64,000 nt of DNA, taken from assembly GCF_056746865.1 (NCBI RefSeq), contig NZ_CM163382.1. One strand, 5' to 3'. Position numbers and translations under genes: made by a program. The notes under the pieces were generated by a model. That model did no database searches. It was given only the letters and a program-made list of their open reading frames with translations, and had not been told where the DNA came from. Of this stretch, positions 8,462 through 16,693 are shown piece after piece (the stretch's first letter is position 1; each line of letters starts with the position of its first letter).

Positions 8462-8941
8462 GTAAGACAACCACGAAGGGTGTTGCTTTATAGCGTCTTC
8501 GATACCGGTATCGCCTTCGGTTGTTAGTGTGTATTAGATAAGCATGTTTTTCCGCCCGGAAATTTAAAGAGAGTGAATTATTCGACAGAAACGCTCACTT
8601 CTGGAAACGAACGACAAGCATATAACGTCCACCAAAGCCTCAACCAACACGCAAAACCCAGCCCCCAACAATCAACTTAAAAATCAATCGGATATTAAAA
8701 TCCCTTCCATATCAACTTCATCACCACTCTTTTTGCGCCTTCCCCTTCGCGCAAAAAATCAAAATCCTCAACAAACCCAATCACCTACCCCACCAATTAC
8801 AAGGACGCCAGCCAATCATGATTGGACGGTGCAAGGACAACACCAACAAAAACAGGAAGTTAGCAGTCTCAGCAAGACACCGACCAGACGGTGAGGAGAC
8901 ATAAAAGGATACGCAAAGGAGCCGCGGCTCCTGGTGATATG

Positions 8942-8965
8942 AAAGCCCACAGATGTGGGCTTTTT
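8942..8965. terminator. Rho-independent terminator-like hairpin immediately 3' of the autotransporter gene
   Basis: aaagcccac / gtgggcttt stem followed by a T-run on the + strand. Confidence 0.5.
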
Positions 8966-8974
8966 CGTTGATGG

Positions 8975-11900
8975 TCAGAACGACCAGTTCACACCAGCCA
9001 CCGCGTTCCACGGGGATTCCACACCGGCACCATGGCTATACCCCACCCCGAGATGTCCGCTTAACGTACTGCTGAATGAGGCTTTAATACCTGCCTGGTA
9101 TATTCCACGTCTGCCCGACAAATCATTGACGAAATTACCGTCATTATTCACCTTCACCCGGTTATCATCGACAAATTCTTTGCGCACAGCCGCCTTCAGC
9201 CACGGCTCAATTTCCATACCGTTCCCCAGACGCATGTTGTAACTCAGCGTTGCGCCCAGTTCACGATATATACTGCGGGTATCGACTGATTTCGATTCCA
9301 TGCCATTGGATAAATGATATTCGGGGTTATCAGCGGTGAACCCCGTTAACGATGCATACGGCGTCAGGTTCCAGTTACCATCCGTAAATCGCATCCCGGT
9401 TTCAATGTGACCGCCCAGCCCGTTGCTGCGATAACTGCCGTTGGCGGCTCCACCGCTGCTCATTTTACCGGCTACGTTACTTTCAAAGCGGTTCAGCTTC
9501 ACGATACCGTCCAGATAGAAACCACTTTCATGTTCCCAGCTGGCATAGCCCCCCAGAGAATAACTGCCCACACTGCCATGTCCTCCACGATCAAAACCAA
9601 TATGTGAATGGGAATAACCCATAAAAGCGCCCAGCGTCGCAATCCCCTCAGGAATATCATTACGGCTATCGATCCCCACCGTCATTCCGGTCAGCGTCTG
9701 CTCAAACCCGGCACCCGCATCGGTGGTGACATTATTACGGGTGTTATACGTCGTCCCCCAGACATTATTGTTGTGTGGACTCGCTTTCATTATGTTCAAC
9801 CGCTCGCGAATACTGTTTAGCTCAGCATCAAAGACCAACGGTAATGTTGCTGCCATATTGAGTACGGCTGCTGTAGAAGGCGTGATGCGATTCTCCGGGA
9901 CGGGTGTCGGCGTTGGAGCGGGAGTCGGGTCTGGTTTCGGATCCGGTTTTGGGTCTGGTTTTGGATCCGGTTTCGGATTTGGGTTGGGGTCCGGGTTGGG
10001 TTTGACATCATTGGTCAGGTTCCAGTTGCTGTTGCCGTCGCTTTTCAGGACATACTCATAGGTCCCAAGATCAACGAAACCGCCGGTATTACCCAGCGTA
10101 AACGAAGCATCCCCTCCCCCTGTTTTCACCAGCGTCATCGCGTCGTCAGACTGAGGGCTGACGCCGGTATCCTGAACAAAGATTTTAAAATTGCCAGTGG
10201 CGTTGTTGTTGACGACCAGTTGATCGCCCCGGGAGTCTGCAACGTTGGTATGCAGGTAGAAATTACCGCTGCCGGAAAGTTCACTGGTGGTCAGCGTATT
10301 GTAGATACCGTTAGTTGTGGCAGGCGCTGCTGTTTGTGCTGATAAATAAACATCACCGTCGTTGAGGAGTAAACTGTTTACTCTATATTCGCAGTTGCTG
10401 GTGCCTGCACAGGAATTATTGCTGTTAAGCCAGACACTGCCCCGACTGGCAGCCGTCAGGTCGGCAAGCGTCGTATCGACGCCATTTCCGATAGTTAATG
10501 TCGCGCTATCGGTAATCCGGACCACCCCTTCAAGTTTAACTGGCGTAACATTATCCCGTGGCGTCATTAACGACAGGCTTCCTGTCGCGCCACTGACCGA
10601 TGCATCCGCCAGCGTACCTGCGTAGACGATTGCCGTCCCGCCAGCGATCAGTAGATCTTCTGCCCGGGCCAGAGCCTGAAACTCATCTTTTGACCGACCG
10701 AGGGTATATTGCCCACCGGAATTAACCTTTGTGGCGAAGTCCTGACCCAGGTTTTGCATTGCCCCACCGTTGCCAACCGTGGAATCGCGAGCTTCGGTAC
10801 CTGCTAATACCAATAAATTACCGCCATTTTCCAGCAGCACATTGGTCGCTAAATTTCCGGCAATGGAAAAGGTGCCGTACTGGTGAGTACCGCTGATTTC
10901 AATACCGTTAGCCGTGCTCGTCTGGAGAGCGGCACCGCTGTTCTGGATGATATCTGTCGCTTTGCCATTATCGTTGACTGTCAGCGTACCGCCTTCATTA
11001 ATCGTTGTTTTTACTGCCTCACCGTTAGCCGAAACTGTTTGTATTCCGCCGTCGTTAATCGTTGTCTCATTCGCCACCCCCTCGACGATTTGTTCGCCGC
11101 CGGTGAGCGTCGTGCCTGTCGCAGTGGCTTTTGTTTTGACGATCTCCCGCCCGCCCGCATTGACCTGTGTTTTGGCGGAAGTGGTGTCTGACTCCACGGT
11201 TAACACGCCGCCATTTGCCAGCAGGATATTGTTCGCCGCATCCTGCTCAATGCTGAACGCGACGCCATCAGCGCGTGTCCCTGTGACCCGCGTCGCTCTG
11301 GTGGTTGCAACCAACGCGCCCTGGCTACTTTGCTGTATCCCCGTTGCGCTGCCTTTCTCCCGCACATCGAGAGTGCCGCCTTCATTAAGCACCGAGTTTT
11401 CAGCCAGACCGCCCTCATTAACTACCTGTGAACCGCCATTAATAATGGAACCTTCCGCTGTCCCGTTTACCATAATTTGTTGTAGGCCTGAGACGATATC
11501 GGTATTGATCGCCTTACCATAATTCTGAACGGTTTGCGTACCGCCATTGATGTGCGTTTTGTCTGTTGACCCACCATCAACAATTTGTTCACCACTTTCG
11601 ATATTTGCCTCAGTGGCTAAACCATATACCGTTTGCTTGCCACCTTTGATATTTGCTTTTTCAGAAGTGGCACTGGCATATATTGTTTGGGTACCAGCAC
11701 TATTAAGTACAGTACCAACATCTTTTCCATAAACATCCATTTTGCCGTTGGCATTAATAATCGTGTCAACTGCCCGGGAACCAGTGACGACTGTTAATGA
11801 GCCAGCGTTTTCCAGCACTACATTTTTAGCTTCTGAATTCCTGATGTAGAAAGCATCACCATAACTGTTGGTTCCTTCGATAAGTGTTCCGGAGGTCGTG

Positions 11901-13549
11901 GAAGCAATTAATGCGCCGCCGGATTGTTGCTCAACATGCTTAGCCTCACCACCGTCCTGAACCTCCAGAACGCCACCATTATTAAGTCTGGTGCTATCTG
12001 TTTTAGCCTCCTTCTGGACAATCAGCTTACCGCCAGCATCAATGGTAGTATTTTTCGCCGAGGTTTTAGCCATTACCGTCAGTTCGCCGGTATTTTCCAG
12101 CACAACATAATTAGCCTCTCCTCCGGTAATAGTGAAGTGAGAGAGCTTGTTGTATCCTTCGATATCAGTCCCTGCGCCCGTGTTGGCAACTAAAGCACTG
12201 CCCGTCTCCTGGTTAACCCCATGTGCAATACCGCCGGTATAGACAATCAGCGAGCCTCCGGCGCTAATATTGCTGCCAGTTGCCGTACCATCTTTCTCAA
12301 CAACCTGCCGGCTCCCAGAGGATATATTTGTCGTGTCAGCTTTCCCGCCGCTCTTGATATTTTGCGTTCCACTGTTGATATTGGTGCCCGTGGCAATACC
12401 ATGATTATTAATATTCTGTGTGCCACCATTAATTATGGTATTTGTCGCGTTTCCGGCAACATCCATAACGCCGCCATTATCTATTCGGGTCGCATCAGCT
12501 TTAGCATTCGTTAAAACTGACATTGTTCCTTTATCTTTAATAATCGTCTTATTTGCCGAACCATATGCGTTTATGTCTAAATGACCACCGTTTTCCAGCA
12601 ACACATTCTCTGCCACGTTATTGTGGATGGAGAATGCCCCTTCACTATTCGTACCGCTCACCGTCAAATCGTAAGTCGTTACTTTTAAAGCGGCTCCATC
12701 GTGCTGAGTAATATTAGTTGCCGTACCACCTCTAACATCAAGCACGCCGCCGGAATAAACTTCAATAACATCCGAGGAGCTCGTGTTATCAACAATTTGC
12801 GTACCACCAGAATAGATCTGCGTATTTTTTGCCGTTGACTTACTATTCAGAGACTGAGTTCCGCCTTCAATCGTCGTGTCCAGCGCACGGCTCTCATATA
12901 CTCTTTGCTCACCGCCATTTTTAATGGCGGTTGTTTCTACTGTGCTCTGTTCAACATACTGTCGCCCACCATTTATGGTTGTGTTCGTCGCCAGACTTCC
13001 TTGCGTGATGTCCTGATAACCAGACTTATTTATCGTCGTACCGTCAACATGCCCCTGAGTTGATACTGACTGGCCTCCACCATCAATGATTGTTCCATTT
13101 GCAGTCCCCCCCTCTATGCGTGAAGTACCGCCCTTAATTGTCGTGTCATTGCTGGTACCACCTTTATAAACATATTGATTGCCACTTTCGATTATCGTGC
13201 CAGTAGAAATTCCTCCGTACTCAATTGACTGTCTGCCTCCATTAATGGTTGTATTATTAGCTTGCCCGTTAATATCGGCATGGATTGATACTAGTTGCTC
13301 GCCACCAGTTTCAATAATACTACTATTAGATATCCCACCATAGACCTCCTGCCGGCCATGGTTGATAATATGTGTGTTATTTGTTGTACCTCGTTCATCT
13401 ACTCGTTGGTTGCCATCTACAGTCTCATCGTTTACCACACCAATAACATTAGTAGTGAAGGCCGCCATCCCGGGCTGGGCATATATTAAGGCAGATATCA
13501 ATAAGGAAAGTACTGAGCGGCGAAAATAATAGGGACTGGTCCTGTTCAT
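8975..13549 (-). CDS. ypjA: Autotransporter adhesin (type Va), YpjA-like
   Basis: Start placed at MNRTSPYYFRR (13549) with AGAGGA SD and extended signal peptide; repetitive passenger domain; Pro/Asp/Lys-rich linker; C-terminal beta-barrel ending ...GVNWSF. Confidence 0.85.
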   Translation of the reverse strand: MNRTSPYYFRRSVLSLLISALIYAQPGMAAFTTNVIGVVNDETVDGNQRVDERGTTNNTHIINHGRQEVYGGISNSSIIETGGEQLVSIHADINGQANNTTINGGRQSIEYGGISTGTIIESGNQYVYKGGTSNDTTIKGGTSRIEGGTANGTIIDGGGQSVSTQGHVDGTTINKSGYQDITQGSLATNTTINGGRQYVEQSTVETTAIKNGGEQRVYESRALDTTIEGGTQSLNSKSTAKNTQIYSGGTQIVDNTSSSDVIEVYSGGVLDVRGGTATNITQHDGAALKVTTYDLTVSGTNSEGAFSIHNNVAENVLLENGGHLDINAYGSANKTIIKDKGTMSVLTNAKADATRIDNGGVMDVAGNATNTIINGGTQNINNHGIATGTNINSGTQNIKSGGKADTTNISSGSRQVVEKDGTATGSNISAGGSLIVYTGGIAHGVNQETGSALVANTGAGTDIEGYNKLSHFTITGGEANYVVLENTGELTVMAKTSAKNTTIDAGGKLIVQKEAKTDSTRLNNGGVLEVQDGGEAKHVEQQSGGALIASTTSGTLIEGTNSYGDAFYIRNSEAKNVVLENAGSLTVVTGSRAVDTIINANGKMDVYGKDVGTVLNSAGTQTIYASATSEKANIKGGKQTVYGLATEANIESGEQIVDGGSTDKTHINGGTQTVQNYGKAINTDIVSGLQQIMVNGTAEGSIINGGSQVVNEGGLAENSVLNEGGTLDVREKGSATGIQQSSQGALVATTRATRVTGTRADGVAFSIEQDAANNILLANGGVLTVESDTTSAKTQVNAGGREIVKTKATATGTTLTGGEQIVEGVANETTINDGGIQTVSANGEAVKTTINEGGTLTVNDNGKATDIIQNSGAALQTSTANGIEISGTHQYGTFSIAGNLATNVLLENGGNLLVLAGTEARDSTVGNGGAMQNLGQDFATKVNSGGQYTLGRSKDEFQALARAEDLLIAGGTAIVYAGTLADASVSGATGSLSLMTPRDNVTPVKLEGVVRITDSATLTIGNGVDTTLADLTAASRGSVWLNSNNSCAGTSNCEYRVNSLLLNDGDVYLSAQTAAPATTNGIYNTLTTSELSGSGNFYLHTNVADSRGDQLVVNNNATGNFKIFVQDTGVSPQSDDAMTLVKTGGGDASFTLGNTGGFVDLGTYEYVLKSDGNSNWNLTNDVKPNPDPNPNPKPDPKPDPKPDPKPDPTPAPTPTPVPENRITPSTAAVLNMAATLPLVFDAELNSIRERLNIMKASPHNNNVWGTTYNTRNNVTTDAGAGFEQTLTGMTVGIDSRNDIPEGIATLGAFMGYSHSHIGFDRGGHGSVGSYSLGGYASWEHESGFYLDGIVKLNRFESNVAGKMSSGGAANGSYRSNGLGGHIETGMRFTDGNWNLTPYASLTGFTADNPEYHLSNGMESKSVDTRSIYRELGATLSYNMRLGNGMEIEPWLKAAVRKEFVDDNRVKVNNDGNFVNDLSGRRGIYQAGIKASFSSTLSGHLGVGYSHGAGVESPWNAVAGVNWSF

Positions 13550-13939
13550 AAATTTCATCCTCTGAAAAGTGAATACTGAGTAGCGTTTAAGCGACCTTAG
13601 CTTTGCTGCAACATCAGCCCACAGGCACCAGACCAGGGGATTCATCCTGAAGAGACAGCGCAAGTGTATTGTGTTCACCGCTCATCAAAGACATCATGAT
13701 GAAATGATGATATTCCGCATAAGAATGAGGCATTTTTTTAAGACATTGTGCTGAAGGATGATTGGATAAAAAAGTCAATCTTTTCAGGAAATACGGCGTA
13801 TTCTTTTCTTTCGACATTGAAGCCATCGGAAAAATAAAATGATTTACATAATCGTTTCTGATGAATATCTTCTGCTCACATAAAAATCACACAATAACAT
13901 TGAGATTGCAGATTGTTTTACTTTTACAGCTTTCGTCCC

Positions 13940-14215
13940 CTCATTGTTGGGCAAATATTGGTAGAGTCAGAGCACGAAAGTTAATACCACGTTCGCACAG
14001 CTCCTCCAACAGCACGGCAAGATGCCGCATACTGCGCCCCAGTAGGTTCAGTTTGCAGACAACCAGTGTGTCACCTACCGATAATGTCCTGAGCCGTTTG
14101 TTCAGTCCGGCCCTGCTGCCACGGTTTTACGTTGAAGTGGTAACCCTGAGCACGCAGTTCATCAGTCAGGCATGGTGCACCATAACGCTGTTGTTGCTGG
14201 GTAAGATCAAAAAAC
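13940..14215 (-). pseudogene. pinH: Serine DNA-invertase (Pin/Hin family) fragment, frameshifted remnant
   Basis: Minus-strand translation [37 protein letters not shown] matches the Hin/Gin catalytic segment GDTLVVWKLDRLGRS...ERGAHFHSLT; upstream frames are broken. Confidence 0.5.
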
Positions 14216-14482
14216 TTTCAGGCAGCTAAGGAAAGTTGAATCAGACATTAGATGAAATATTTCAACCAATTACAGCACCAATTTAAACTCAGTAAATCAC
14301 AGCGCAGATCAAGGGGTTACGTGAAAGCGTAGCCCCTTTTTCTTTGGTAGTAGCAGCAAAATGGTTGTAGTGTAAAAAATAATCCCGTTTAATCAATCAA
14401 TAATACATATTGTTTCAATCTACGTTATTATCTCTTTGTAAAACCTGCAGTTTATTTATCATTGAAAACTGCTTTTAGAACT

Positions 14483-15937
14483 TTATACAAGGGGACGATT
14501 CTCAATGGGACTATCCTCAGGGGAATTTTCCTCAGAGGAACTATCATCAAAGTCATCATCCATAGATGAAATACCATCGAATGGTGCCACGCCCGTGATT
14601 AGTTTTATTTTATTATTACGATCAGTCAAGACTCCATTTAAACCATTTTCGCTGACGGATTTTAATAATTTATCATAACTCTTATTGTCATCAGGCACAT
14701 TAAAAATACACGGAGTATCAACATCAAACAATGACGTTCCCCAGTTCACATATTGAATATCATAGTTACTGAAGTTCTGTCCAGAAAAGAAGCATCCCTT
14801 AAAATCCAATCCACGTAAATTATATAAACTACCCTCTTCTTTTGGGAGAGCAATTTTAATTCTGGCTATCTCCCAGACAAAATTGCCATTTTTGTATTTG
14901 AATACCGTTTCAAGCTCTCCTCCAGACAACTTGACTTCTGGAAATAATTTGAAATTAAACCCTACATTATTATGTGTCAACGTAGATGAACAAAAGATGG
15001 AAAAAGCTTGCAGTGCTGAATTATAGCTATCGATTTTATCTTGAGGCTGCGCTCTTGGTAAAAACTTATAGCAACACTCATAAAAATTAAGTAGAAACTC
15101 TGATGACCTTCCATTTTTATCAAATAATACCCGCTGAAAATGCTGCACAAACTTATTCGTTTTTTCTTGAATATCTATGGTGTGTTCCTTTGACTCTAAC
15201 AAAGATGAATCCTGTTGAAGTGCATTGCTCATCTGGTTGAGGAACAACTGCATTTCTTTCAACTTATCTCCATAGTGACCTTTAACTTGCTGAGAATTTT
15301 TAGTTACAGTTGAAACCTTATCTGTGTGGTTTTCATATAAATTATGTGATTCCATACAGTCATTTGGCGGCGTTTCTGAAATAACACTACGCGTTCTACC
15401 TGGCTGAAGTGAAGCAACATGAAAATCACTTTTTCTTATATTGCCGAATAGGGTCTGTTCATTTCTCTTAGCGCATTCAATAAACTGATCAACATTATTT
15501 TTATTAGATGACAGGTTAATTTCAGAAACCGCATTTTCTTTGTTCTCCAGCTTTAGTTTAACGAGAAGGTCTTCCCACACCGTTTTTTTTAAAAATACTA
15601 CGTCAGGCTCACCATCAGCAACTAACTCTTGATTATTATCAAAGTGTACGTTGTATACTTTTAATTTATTTTCATTAGCATCATATTTAATACGTTTTAA
15701 TTGTTCTCCGGCTCCCATAATGACAAAAGCATTGCCTTCATGATATTTACATTCAGACATCATTTTTTGTAAAATTTCAAGAGCACCGTTATACGTCCCT
15801 GAGGCAGCTTCTTTACAAATTAATTTTATAATACTATAAGCTAGTAACTCCATGGATTTAGAAGATTTTCTTTCATTACAATTTCCACTATTTATAAATG
15901 TGCTAGTGTTAATTTCGTTGCTTTTACTAACTAACAT
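14483..15937 (-). CDS. Hypothetical low-GC protein with pentapeptide-repeat-like C-terminal region and acidic tail; occupies the ypjB/ypjC position next to ileY
   Basis: 484-aa ORF, strongly AT-rich; C-terminal segment LRGLDFKGCFFSGQNFSNYDIQYVNW resembles pentapeptide repeats. Confidence 0.6.
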   Translation of the reverse strand: MLVSKSNEINTSTFINSGNCNERKSSKSMELLAYSIIKLICKEAASGTYNGALEILQKMMSECKYHEGNAFVIMGAGEQLKRIKYDANENKLKVYNVHFDNNQELVADGEPDVVFLKKTVWEDLLVKLKLENKENAVSEINLSSNKNNVDQFIECAKRNEQTLFGNIRKSDFHVASLQPGRTRSVISETPPNDCMESHNLYENHTDKVSTVTKNSQQVKGHYGDKLKEMQLFLNQMSNALQQDSSLLESKEHTIDIQEKTNKFVQHFQRVLFDKNGRSSEFLLNFYECCYKFLPRAQPQDKIDSYNSALQAFSIFCSSTLTHNNVGFNFKLFPEVKLSGGELETVFKYKNGNFVWEIARIKIALPKEEGSLYNLRGLDFKGCFFSGQNFSNYDIQYVNWGTSLFDVDTPCIFNVPDDNKSYDKLLKSVSENGLNGVLTDRNNKIKLITGVAPFDGISSMDDDFDDSSSEENSPEDSPIENRPLV

Positions 15938-16693
15938 TGTCTTTTCCTCAGTTAATGTCTACATGGCTATTTTTAATGTTATTATTGTTTGTCACTATAA
16001 AAAATCGCTCATTTGAGACAATTGCTGGCATTAACAGCTTCATATGCTATACATGGTACTTTTAATTAATTTAGCACAAGAATGTTAAATTTAATAAGCA
16101 AAAGGTTATTTCACTGTATGATAAAAACCACCCGTTATAATTTATTCGTGAGAATCGTTTTTTGAGTGTTAGAAATTTATATCTAAATAGCGTTGATTAA
16201 TGACCAAAGCCAGACTCCTGTAATGCTCACAAGACTCTTCTGCATTCGACGGCGGTTCTAGTCAGTAGTAGATGTTTAAGGCGTGGCAGAGACATTTCAT
16301 CCTTACTCTACAGCATTGGTCCACATACAAATCGTGGTTGTGACACTTCACTTATCATCAGTGAGCGAACAGAGAATAGTTCAGTGATTTGAGTAATTAA
16401 CCTGATTAAATGAAGAGGCATGATAAATGATAATACTCTGGCTTTATCGTTAATTACTTAATTCCACATGTAAGCAATTTGCCCGCTTGGCATAGCGGGC
16501 ATTTTTTCCAGGTACTTTTGAATGAGTACTGATGGATAAATACATTGCAGTGGCGTGCCACGTACCAAAACACCAGCCCTCATTCGAAACTACCTACCGC
16601 ACTGCTTCTTTAAAATGGCGTTAGTCGTGAAATATTGACCGCCATCGAGTCCCCCTTGTAACCTTAACTCTTCCTGATACGTGAATAATGATT

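Follow-up and report, generated by a model that had tools for sequence, protein, structure and literature searches.

The 64,000-nucleotide stretch of DNA analysed here (referred to below as the window) carries an autotransporter gene whose product contains a run of proline dipeptides, and the locus raises the question of whether this run is a simple-sequence tract at which slipped-strand mispairing alters the length of the protein between strains, as a preliminary description had proposed. Window positions 6197-16261, within which the gene lies, were found to match, at 100% identity, a RefSeq region whose annotation reads 'ypjA: adhesin-like autotransporter YpjA/EhaD' and in which ypjA adjoins ypjCB; the annotation of this identical locus (CDS 5376..9950, WP_001082377.1) supplied the start codon. 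Judged by this identity, the gene at 8975..13549 is the ypjA ortholog itself and not a paralogue; the earlier label 'YpjA-like' named the right family but was too loose, since the identical region is ypjA. The features to which the text refers are as follows.

8975..13549, minus strand: ypjA/ehaD coding sequence (open reading frame; 1524 amino acids plus stop), encoding an AIDA-I-type (type Va) autotransporter adhesin
10013..10381, minus strand: pertactin-type autochaperone domain at the C-terminal end of the passenger (amino acids 1057-1179; PF03212, ORF residues 1100-1222)
9896..10003, minus strand: (X-Pro)18 linker KPNPDPNPNPKPDPKPDPKPDPKPDPTPAPTPTPVP (amino acids 1183-1218, 36 residues; from the translation, with no solved homologue spanning the tract)
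9977..9988, minus strand: 12-nt unit CCCAACCCAAAT (Pro-Asn-Pro-Asn), present in one copy in the window allele (codon-level comparison)
9929..9976, minus strand: (Pro-Lys-Pro-Asp)x4 block, whose 12/24-nt repeat is imperfect, with synonymous codons that vary
9896..9928, minus strand: Pro-Thr/Ala/Val tail PTPAPTPTPVP (allele table)
9788..9880, minus strand: predicted alpha-helical segment between tract and barrel (amino acids 1224-1254; AlphaFold helix, fragment residues 220-250)
8981..9766, minus strand: C-terminal outer-membrane beta-barrel (amino acids 1262-1523; PF03797 and TIGR01414; beta-strands at fragment residues 258-519 with high pLDDT)

The protein gave Pfam matches to AIDA (E=5e-142), Pertactin (E=5e-45) and Autotransporter (E=6e-46), and its N-terminus, MNRTSPYYFRRSVLSLLISALIYAQPGMA, looks like an extended Sec signal peptide and is a putative one. 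AIDA-type repeats build the beta-helical passenger (PF16168, E=5e-142, in 8 stretches; TIGR04415 in 11), so that the passenger, described previously as highly repetitive, is indeed so at the protein level but not at the DNA level, as Tandem Repeats Finder run on the whole gene reported no further tandem repeat in ypjA outside 9925-10001.

The dipeptide-repeat peptide proved to be real. NWNLTNDVKPNPDPNPNPKPDPKPDPKPDPKPDPTPAPTPTPVPENRITPST was present in the minus-strand translation of window positions 8975-13678; the peptide as first described corresponds to residues 1184-1216 (window 9902-10000), the whole run being slightly longer. Within the 36-residue tract there are 18 prolines, compared to 14 in the remaining 1488 residues (18 of the 32 in the protein; 50% versus 0.9% proline content), and the longest (XP)n run among 2000 residue shuffles of YpjA was 4, as against 18 observed; the run far exceeds chance. 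A Pfam hit to Trypan_PARP, at 30 bits where the cut-off is 100, was rejected as a composition artefact of the proline-rich tract and not homology. On the plus strand, the open reading frame at 9723-10061 (112 amino acids) does no more than mirror the tract as a Gly-rich sequence.

Placement of the tract at the passenger-to-barrel junction was also upheld, as it takes up the interval separating the Pertactin/autochaperone domain (ORF residues 1100-1222) from the barrel (ORF residues 1306-1545 in Pfam), and homologues of solved structure agreed with the AlphaFold model on this point. The autochaperone domain aligned to the C-terminal passenger ends in the crystal structures of pertactin, IgA1 protease and Hap, which extended up to residue 176-188 of the modelled YpjA fragment, and the last passenger beta-strand in the AlphaFold model stopped at fragment residue 175; the translocator structures of Vag8 and BrkA aligned from fragment residues 213 and 238, respectively. 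The model had a mean pLDDT of 83.9 and fell below 50 only at fragment residues 68-76 and 181-214, the latter being the tract, which was predicted to have no DSSP secondary-structure elements. Alternating X-Pro is incompatible with helix or sheet, and composition together with the low-confidence region of the model suggests an extended, polyproline-II-like form. The tract probably joins the autochaperone end of the folded beta-helical passenger to the outer-membrane anchor (alpha-helix plus beta-barrel), and in such a form may act as a stand-off and be the first part to emerge during passenger secretion. Taking 3.1 A per residue, its full extension over 36 residues would be about 11 nm at most, and one XP unit would shift this reach by roughly 0.6 nm, a change so small that its effect on function is probably close to neutral.

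Close relatives with the same architecture are entirely without the tract, which is thus dispensable in them: YejO (50% identical) and a 771-amino-acid paralogue have a maximum of 2 prolines in any 30-residue window. Homologues in E. albertii, Citrobacter, Salmonella and Klebsiella carry unrelated XP tracts at an equal distance (about 305-330 amino acids) from the C-terminus. The homologue search scored the 8000 candidates with the most words in common; it yielded mainly partial sequences and YejO-type relatives and serves for family comparison only.

At the DNA level, Tandem Repeats Finder detected a repeat at 9925-10001 with periods of 12 (4.5 copies, 80% matches) and 24 nt (3.2 copies, 78% matches). 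The term 'simple-sequence tract' therefore holds in that a repeat is present, but at 78-80% matches it is imperfect and no pure microsatellite.

The tract region was matched in about 2,525 of 5,426 complete E. coli genomes, ypjA being missing from about 53%, with the caveat that the best match in genomes without ypjA may be the ycgI-locus paralogue described below. Lengths were obtained from identity bands and systematic samples of these roughly 2,525 genomes. In a systematic sample of 58 rows, alleles with 18, 19 and 20 XP units (231-, 237- and 243-nt classes) made up about 31, 52 and 17%, respectively, and a rare 22-unit form (255-nt class) was found in O55:H7 and in a small number of further strains. 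Identity-band counts concur (window type, 401 at >=99% and 359 at 95-99%; K-12 type, 1267; O157 type, 268 and 109). The expectation that linker length varies between strains was accordingly confirmed, where one identical repeat length in all alleles would have refuted it. All differences were whole 6- or 12-nt units and kept the reading frame: CCCAACCCAAAT is present once in the window allele, twice in O157:H7 and O145:H28 and three times in O55:H7, while the unit CCAGAC, inside the (Pro-Lys-Pro-Asp)x4 block, is present once in the K-12 lineage and twice in an O9:H10 strain. The PTPAPTPTPVP tail did not vary in length and showed nothing but point substitutions (A, D or E at a single position). 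K-12-type rows sampled were all of 237 nt and the O157:H7 rows listed were all of 243 nt, except strain TX 265-1, which retains three CCCAACCCAAAT units; the tract thus looks stable within clones. It was also observed that ypjA is a pseudogene in several fetched strains and that several alleles are annotated as frameshifted; since many strains have lost the gene or carry it as a pseudogene, linker length may be under no selection at all.

Two pairs of alleles bear most directly on how the lengths arose. O157:H7 and O55:H7 differed by a single 12-nt gap with 0 mismatches in 903 nt, and K-12 and the O9:H10 strain by a single 6-nt gap with 0 substitutions in about 900 nt; a lone unit indel on an otherwise identical background is the signature of slippage, which is read here from its products, the sequences of the alleles. 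The indels duplicate the adjacent unit exactly (CCCAACCCAAAT x1/x2/x3; CCAGAC x1/x2). Occasional replication slippage on the imperfect 6/12/24-nt repeat would therefore gain or lose whole units with the frame preserved, giving lineage-specific lengths of 18 to 22 XP units, and as every change is in frame, linker length alone is altered and expression never. The word 'prone' nevertheless overstated the case for ypjA, where nearly all genomes fall into three length classes. The longest perfectly periodic stretch, which in the window allele is 20 nt (12-nt period; less than two copies), reaches 40 nt in the O55:H7 allele and from 51 to 99 nt in the paralogue, and no perfect tandem duplication was found in the window allele, which by its sequence is a contracted, impure form expected to be the least slippage-prone. 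Instability would thus follow repeat purity, being low in ypjA, lowest in the window allele and high in the ycgI-locus paralogue.

This paralogue sits between ymgJ and minE; in K-12 the locus is annotated ycgI and holds a 344-nt pseudogene remnant, whereas ycgH is a different autotransporter gene, flanked by ymgF and ymgD. The paralogue resembles YpjA in having 77% identity over 1043 amino acids, the same architecture, a tract at the same site and a common ...PDPTPEPTPTPVP tail, but has a shorter passenger (1128-1156 amino acids), and its (Asn-Pro)22-38 linker, for which near-pure CCAAAT and CCGAACCCAAAT arrays code, varies far more in length than the ypjA tract. Among the 40 listed genomes there were 11 length classes (NP x22-38), with variation confined to the pure sub-arrays. 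The (Asn-Pro)38 sequence of ETEC4075 was considered as an extreme ypjA allele and rejected, its neighbourhood being the different locus beside minCDE. PGAP/RefSeq names the paralogue 'ypjA' too, and the shared name may mix two genes in surveys of adhesin presence/absence and alleles.

The strongest competing explanation is that the lengths are old allele lineages spread by homologous recombination, with occasional gene conversion from the paralogue and no slippage. Every length class has its own identity band and tracks sequence haplotype, and GPT24-02 and O55:H7, both of 22 units, differ at 14 sites; indeed, length differences between strains mostly segregate together with SNP haplotypes, which indicates that most were inherited or recombined and did not newly arise. 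In the ypjA allele of strain KE55, moreover, the (Pro-Lys-Pro-Asp)x4 block is replaced by (CCAAAT)10, identical to the paralogue array, between ypjA-type flanks. Point mutation would require 13 substitutions to produce this array, and the allele looks to have been converted from the paralogue; when sought as a length-variable family, the KE55 type proved to be a singleton, and short-patch conversion of this kind would alter the ypjA tract more rarely than slippage. What recombination alone does not predict is the unit-only difference, seen in the two pairs identical over about 900 nt apart from one exact unit. The inserted units also copy their neighbours, and the paralogue changes only in its pure sub-arrays (ETEC4075 and ETEC4068 are one 6-nt unit apart). 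Recombination and slippage are not exclusive, and recombination without slippage is considered improbable, at perhaps one chance in four.

Diversifying or adaptive selection on the linker, through antigenic escape or through matching of adhesin reach to O-antigen or capsule thickness, is rather less probable. The tract is expected to be surface exposed, pertactin R1/R2 repeat numbers vary among alleles (PMC8931430), the XP sequences that other genera carry at this site are unrelated, which implies fast evolution, and the change from three units to two coincides with the transition from O55:H7 to O157:H7. Three units are kept, however, in O157:H7 TX 265-1, the steps are tiny (at most about 1.2 nm per 12-nt unit), an unconstrained spacer would equally be expected to diverge fast, and the gene is a pseudogene in several of the fetched strains and missing from about 53% of genomes. 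A more elaborate proposal, that ypjA and the paralogue form a two-gene system in which the hypervariable (Asn-Pro)n array of the paralogue is a reservoir, copied into ypjA by gene conversion as in KE55, and length is selected for O-antigen/capsule depth, is regarded as a long shot.

Phase variation, with slipped-strand mispairing toggling YpjA expression as at a contingency locus, is very unlikely. The tract does lie within an adhesin gene of which several alleles are annotated as frameshifted, but it is internal to the coding sequence, all length differences are multiples of 6 nt, CRE389, the one frameshifted allele looked at here, keeps an intact tract, the window allele is without perfect tandem duplication (12-nt periodicity of at most 20 nt), and sampled clonal groups were uniform in length (TX 265-1 being the O157:H7 exception). 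Sequencing or assembly artefact can be dismissed for practical purposes: long-read assemblies are error-prone at repeats and CRE389 differs by 1 nt in a 701-nt span, but the same lengths recur across hundreds of independent complete genomes, the differences are exact in-frame units and a 108-nt tract is easily spanned by any read.

The tract is a slowly evolving in-frame repeat polymorphism in a real yet ordinary linker; in full, it is probably an unstructured proline-rich spacer subject to slow in-frame slippage and rarer gene conversion, with no phase-variation switch. Contingency loci and ypjA have in common repeat tracts in surface-protein genes altered by slipped-strand mispairing, but in ypjA the 6/12-nt units keep the frame and purity and rate are low, giving length polymorphism and not on/off switching. 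In TonB, a (Glu-Pro)n(Lys-Pro)n region of charged, alternating X-Pro forms an extended, rather rigid spacer between functional parts and spans the periplasm; TonB is not an autotransporter, and its likeness to the YpjA tract is a compositional analogy without homology.

Closer parallels exist among autotransporters. TibA, the self-associating autotransporter of E. coli H10407, has an additional proline-rich domain (residues 627-677), described as lying between the junction region and the C-terminal domain embedded in the membrane (PMC3835316). Likened by described layout, the two proteins are both of AIDA-I type and the TibA domain has the same position and a similar size (about 50 amino acids), the YpjA tract being a strict X-Pro alternation. 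The YpjA tract qualifies as a TibA-type spacer by location, high proline content and predicted lack of regular secondary structure; alignments between low-complexity tracts such as these would tell little. Bordetella pertactin alleles vary in how many proline-rich repeat units they carry (R1/R2; PMC8931430), and the C-terminus of the pertactin passenger is homologous to the YpjA domain just upstream of the tract. On comparison of allele sequences, YpjA shares the trait of differing by whole in-frame repeat units. The pertactin units, however, are described as loops of the passenger beta-helix and have other motifs, unlike the autochaperone-to-helix spacer of YpjA, and it is their variation that is discussed in connection with immune selection. 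In kind, the YpjA linker polymorphism is to be classed with the TibA proline-rich domain and the polymorphic pertactin repeats. A description of it was not found in the literature on ypjA/EhaD, ycgH and proline-rich autotransporter linkers, coverage of which was partial, so that this is weak evidence.

The significance is modest: the YpjA/EhaD linker is documented as an in-frame repeat polymorphism with few stable length classes. Its length could serve as a minor typing marker (e.g. three units in O55:H7 versus two in O157:H7), and the dispensability of the tract in relatives suggests that the linker may be freely shortened or lengthened in surface display via YpjA-type translocators. If the two-gene proposal were true, the linker would become a tunable 'reach' for short adhesins. 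The impure ypjA tract and the pure paralogue tract, carried in the same genomes, provide a natural illustration that the purity of a repeat, and not its presence, sets its instability.

The minus-strand ORF ending at window position 8975 lies within a region (window 6197-16261) that is 100% identical to a RefSeq region carrying a CDS, adjoining ypjCB, annotated as 'ypjA: adhesin-like autotransporter YpjA/EhaD' with a product of 1524 amino acids (WP_001082377.1); on the basis of this identity the coding sequence was placed as follows, together with its X-Pro tract.

8975-13549, minus strand: ypjA coding sequence, start taken from the RefSeq annotation of the 100%-identical region
9896-10003, minus strand: full alternation (X-Pro)18, residues 1183-1218, translated as ...NWNLTNDV-KPNPDPNPNPKPDPKPDPKPDPKPDPTPAPTPTPVP-ENRITPST...
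9902-10000, minus strand: peptide of the preliminary description, residues 1184-1216, by translation

The preliminary description had read the tract as a dipeptide-repeat linker, and at the protein level this was confirmed: 18 prolines fall within the 36-residue tract compared to 14 in the other 1488 residues of YpjA, and 2000 shuffles of the protein gave no (XP)n run longer than 4, compared to (X-Pro)18 in the real sequence. At the DNA level, however, the repeat is imperfect, with 12- and 24-nt periods and 78-80% matches at window 9925-10001 (Tandem Repeats Finder); no further tandem repeat was detected by this program anywhere in ypjA. A 112-codon antisense ORF (window 9723-10061, plus strand) reads GSGFGSGFGSGFG... 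in its middle part. This Gly-rich stretch is the X-Pro repeat seen from the opposite strand and follows mechanically from it; nothing marks the ORF as a gene.

Near ypjA, window 4889-6196 (1308 nt) is inserted relative to strain 2017C-4173W12, which is otherwise 100% identical and 5 nt of whose sequence is repeated at the two ends of the insertion. It encodes a 108-amino acid HTH_Tnp_1 protein and a 296-amino acid rve-integrase protein, as in IS3-family elements, and it splits a tyrosine-recombinase gene annotated in 2017C-4173W12.

The location at the passenger-to-barrel junction was borne out by domain searches, solved structures and modelling. Pfam placed AIDA repeats in eight stretches of the YpjA ORF, a Pertactin domain at residues 1100-1222 and the autotransporter barrel at 1306-1545, and NCBIfam concurred. 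A search among solved structures matched the last 520 residues of YpjA to passengers from pertactin, IgA1 protease and Hap at their C-terminal ends, the alignments reaching fragment residues 176-188 (numbered within these 520 residues), while alignment to the Vag8 and BrkA translocators started at residues 213 and 238, respectively; no match in this search covered the tract (fragment residues 179-214). An AlphaFold model of the fragment (28 homologues, mean pLDDT 83.9, pTM 0.76) gave beta-helix strands to residue 175, no secondary structure at 181-214 (pLDDT <50), then a helix at 220-250 followed by the barrel strands. Taken together, the alignments and the model predict that the tract is a disordered spacer running from the autochaperone end of the passenger to the pre-barrel helix. 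From what is established for X-Pro sequences, the tract would be extended and polyproline-II-like, rising ~3.1 Å per residue; in this form it would span at most ~11 nm for 36 residues and ~14 nm for 44. It would act as a stand-off between the barrel and the folded passenger, and would emerge before any other segment when the protein is secreted.

Homologues were compared over the C-terminal 520 residues of YpjA. Those of E. albertii carry NPDPKPDP-type tracts of 9-16 units, while those of Citrobacter, Salmonella, Klebsiella and several others carry unrelated Pro-rich tracts (e.g. IPEPEPTPEPEPNP, DPVPDPAPQP), all ~305-330 residues from the C-terminus. The tract is dispensable in relatives: YejO (50% identical to YpjA) and a 771-amino acid E. 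coli autotransporter have no more than 2 prolines in any 30-residue window. As the tract is absent from these two and unrelated in sequence in homologues of other genera, the Pro-rich insert is optional and fast-evolving, which fits a spacer with few sequence constraints. A tract alike in position and similar in size is known from TibA, an AIDA-I-type E. coli autotransporter with 'an additional proline-rich domain' (residues 627-677) between the junction region and the membrane-embedded domain (PMC3835316). YpjA itself has been classed with the biofilm-forming self-associating autotransporters in a review which notes that no structural study of it has been published (PMC9289746).

Allele lengths were surveyed with each allele's own tract plus 60-nt flanks as query, using identity bands and systematic samples of genomes; any in-frame indel drops a genome below the ≥99% band. 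Of 5,426 complete E. coli genomes, about 2,525 had a match to the tract region and ~53% had none; in genomes without ypjA, the best-placed match may be the paralogue described below.

231 nt: window-type allele, 401 genomes at ≥99% and 359 at 95-99%, with a length of 231 nt in every row sampled from either band
237 nt: K-12-type allele, 1267 genomes at ≥99%
243 nt: O157-type allele, 268 genomes at ≥99% and 109 at 95-99%
243 nt: second allele, from ETEC O169:H41, 7 genomes
255 nt: O55:H7 strains, O157:H7 TX 265-1, three pigeon/poultry strains and isolate GPT24-02

In an evenly spaced sample the three main classes (231, 237 and 243 nt) accounted for 31%, 52% and 17%, respectively. Linker length thus differs between strains, as had been proposed, with 18, 19, 20 or 22 XP units (6 nt each) per ypjA allele; as all differences are multiples of 6 nt, the reading frame is never lost.

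Codon-level comparison showed differences of whole units: the window allele has a single copy of CCCAACCCAAAT, O157:H7 and O145:H28 have two and O55:H7 has three, and CCAGAC is doubled in an O9:H10 strain relative to K-12. O157 180-PT54 and O55:H7 CB9615 differed by one 12-nt gap with 0 substitutions over 903 aligned nt, and K-12 and the O9:H10 strain by one 6-nt gap with 0 substitutions over 897 nt. The tract therefore changes faster than its flanks collect substitutions, and slippage would be expected to leave just such indels of whole units in sequences that are identical otherwise. The expectation of a slippage-prone tract was nevertheless upheld only in part, since ypjA is near-stable: all sampled K-12-type rows, many laboratory derivatives among them, were 237 nt, and every O157:H7 row listed had 243 nt, the one exception being TX 265-1, which matches the O55:H7 allele exactly over its 915-nt region. 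Perfect 12-nt periodicity extends over at most 20 nt in the window allele, which is under two copies, compared to 28 nt in the O157 allele and 40 nt in that of O55:H7; the window allele is the poorest slippage substrate of those compared. The ypjA tract does not appear to be very unstable, and by the defining tests it did not behave as a phase-variable contingency locus.

An apparent outlier, (Asn-Pro)38 in ETEC4075, was ruled out as a ypjA allele by its neighbourhood (hlyE ... minCDE - gene - ymgJ ymgI ymgG ymgD). It belongs to a YpjA paralogue of 1128-1156 amino acids, 77% identical to YpjA across 1043 residues, at a position where K-12 has the 344-nt pseudogene remnant ycgI; KE55 carries both genes.

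ETEC4075 locus 6206-9676 and KE55 locus 6204-9590, outside the window: YpjA paralogue, between ymgJ and minE

RefSeq also names the paralogue ypjA, which could confound studies of ypjA presence/absence and alleles. A 39-codon ORF (MPHSYAEYHHFIMMSLMSGEHNTLALSLQDESPGLVPVG; window 13614-13733, minus strand; RefSeq hypothetical) lies 64 nt upstream of ypjA, and a closely similar ORF lies at equal distance upstream of the ETEC4075 paralogue (9741-9860 of its locus); the pair may represent a small ORF conserved as a leader or regulator, or merely conserved 5' sequence.

In the paralogue the linker is encoded by CCAAAT and CCGAACCCAAAT arrays that are nearly pure, perfect periodicity extending over 51-99 nt, and among the 40 best-matching genomes it fell into 11 length classes, from NP x22 to x38. 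In six read directly (38, 37, 32, 30, 24 and 22 copies) the differences were confined to pure sub-arrays, and a single 6-nt unit was the sole difference between ETEC4075 and ETEC4068. That two sister genes differ in this way at one site, the impure tract being near-stable and the pure one highly variable, supports a slippage rate set by repeat purity. In the KE55 ypjA allele (NZ_CP141061.1 1174706-1175242; a singleton in the genome collection) both flanks are ypjA-type and (CCAAAT)10, matching the terminal array of the paralogue, replaces the (Pro-Lys-Pro-Asp)4 block. Point mutation would need 13 substitutions; the most economical account, and probably the correct one, is a single event of short-patch gene conversion between the paralogues, although no marker specific to the paralogue was transferred along with the array from outside the repeats.

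No description of ypjA linker polymorphism was found in the literature searched, and it represents a new but unremarkable case of a known kind of feature. The gene is often decayed in related genomes: O55:H7 CB9615, O157:H7 TX 265-1 and CRE389 have frameshifted copies, while those of O145:H28 RM13514, JX21CE8, PT62 and an O9:H10 strain are truncated. This frequent pseudogenisation, along with the absence of ypjA from other genomes, argues that variation in tract length is mostly neutral.
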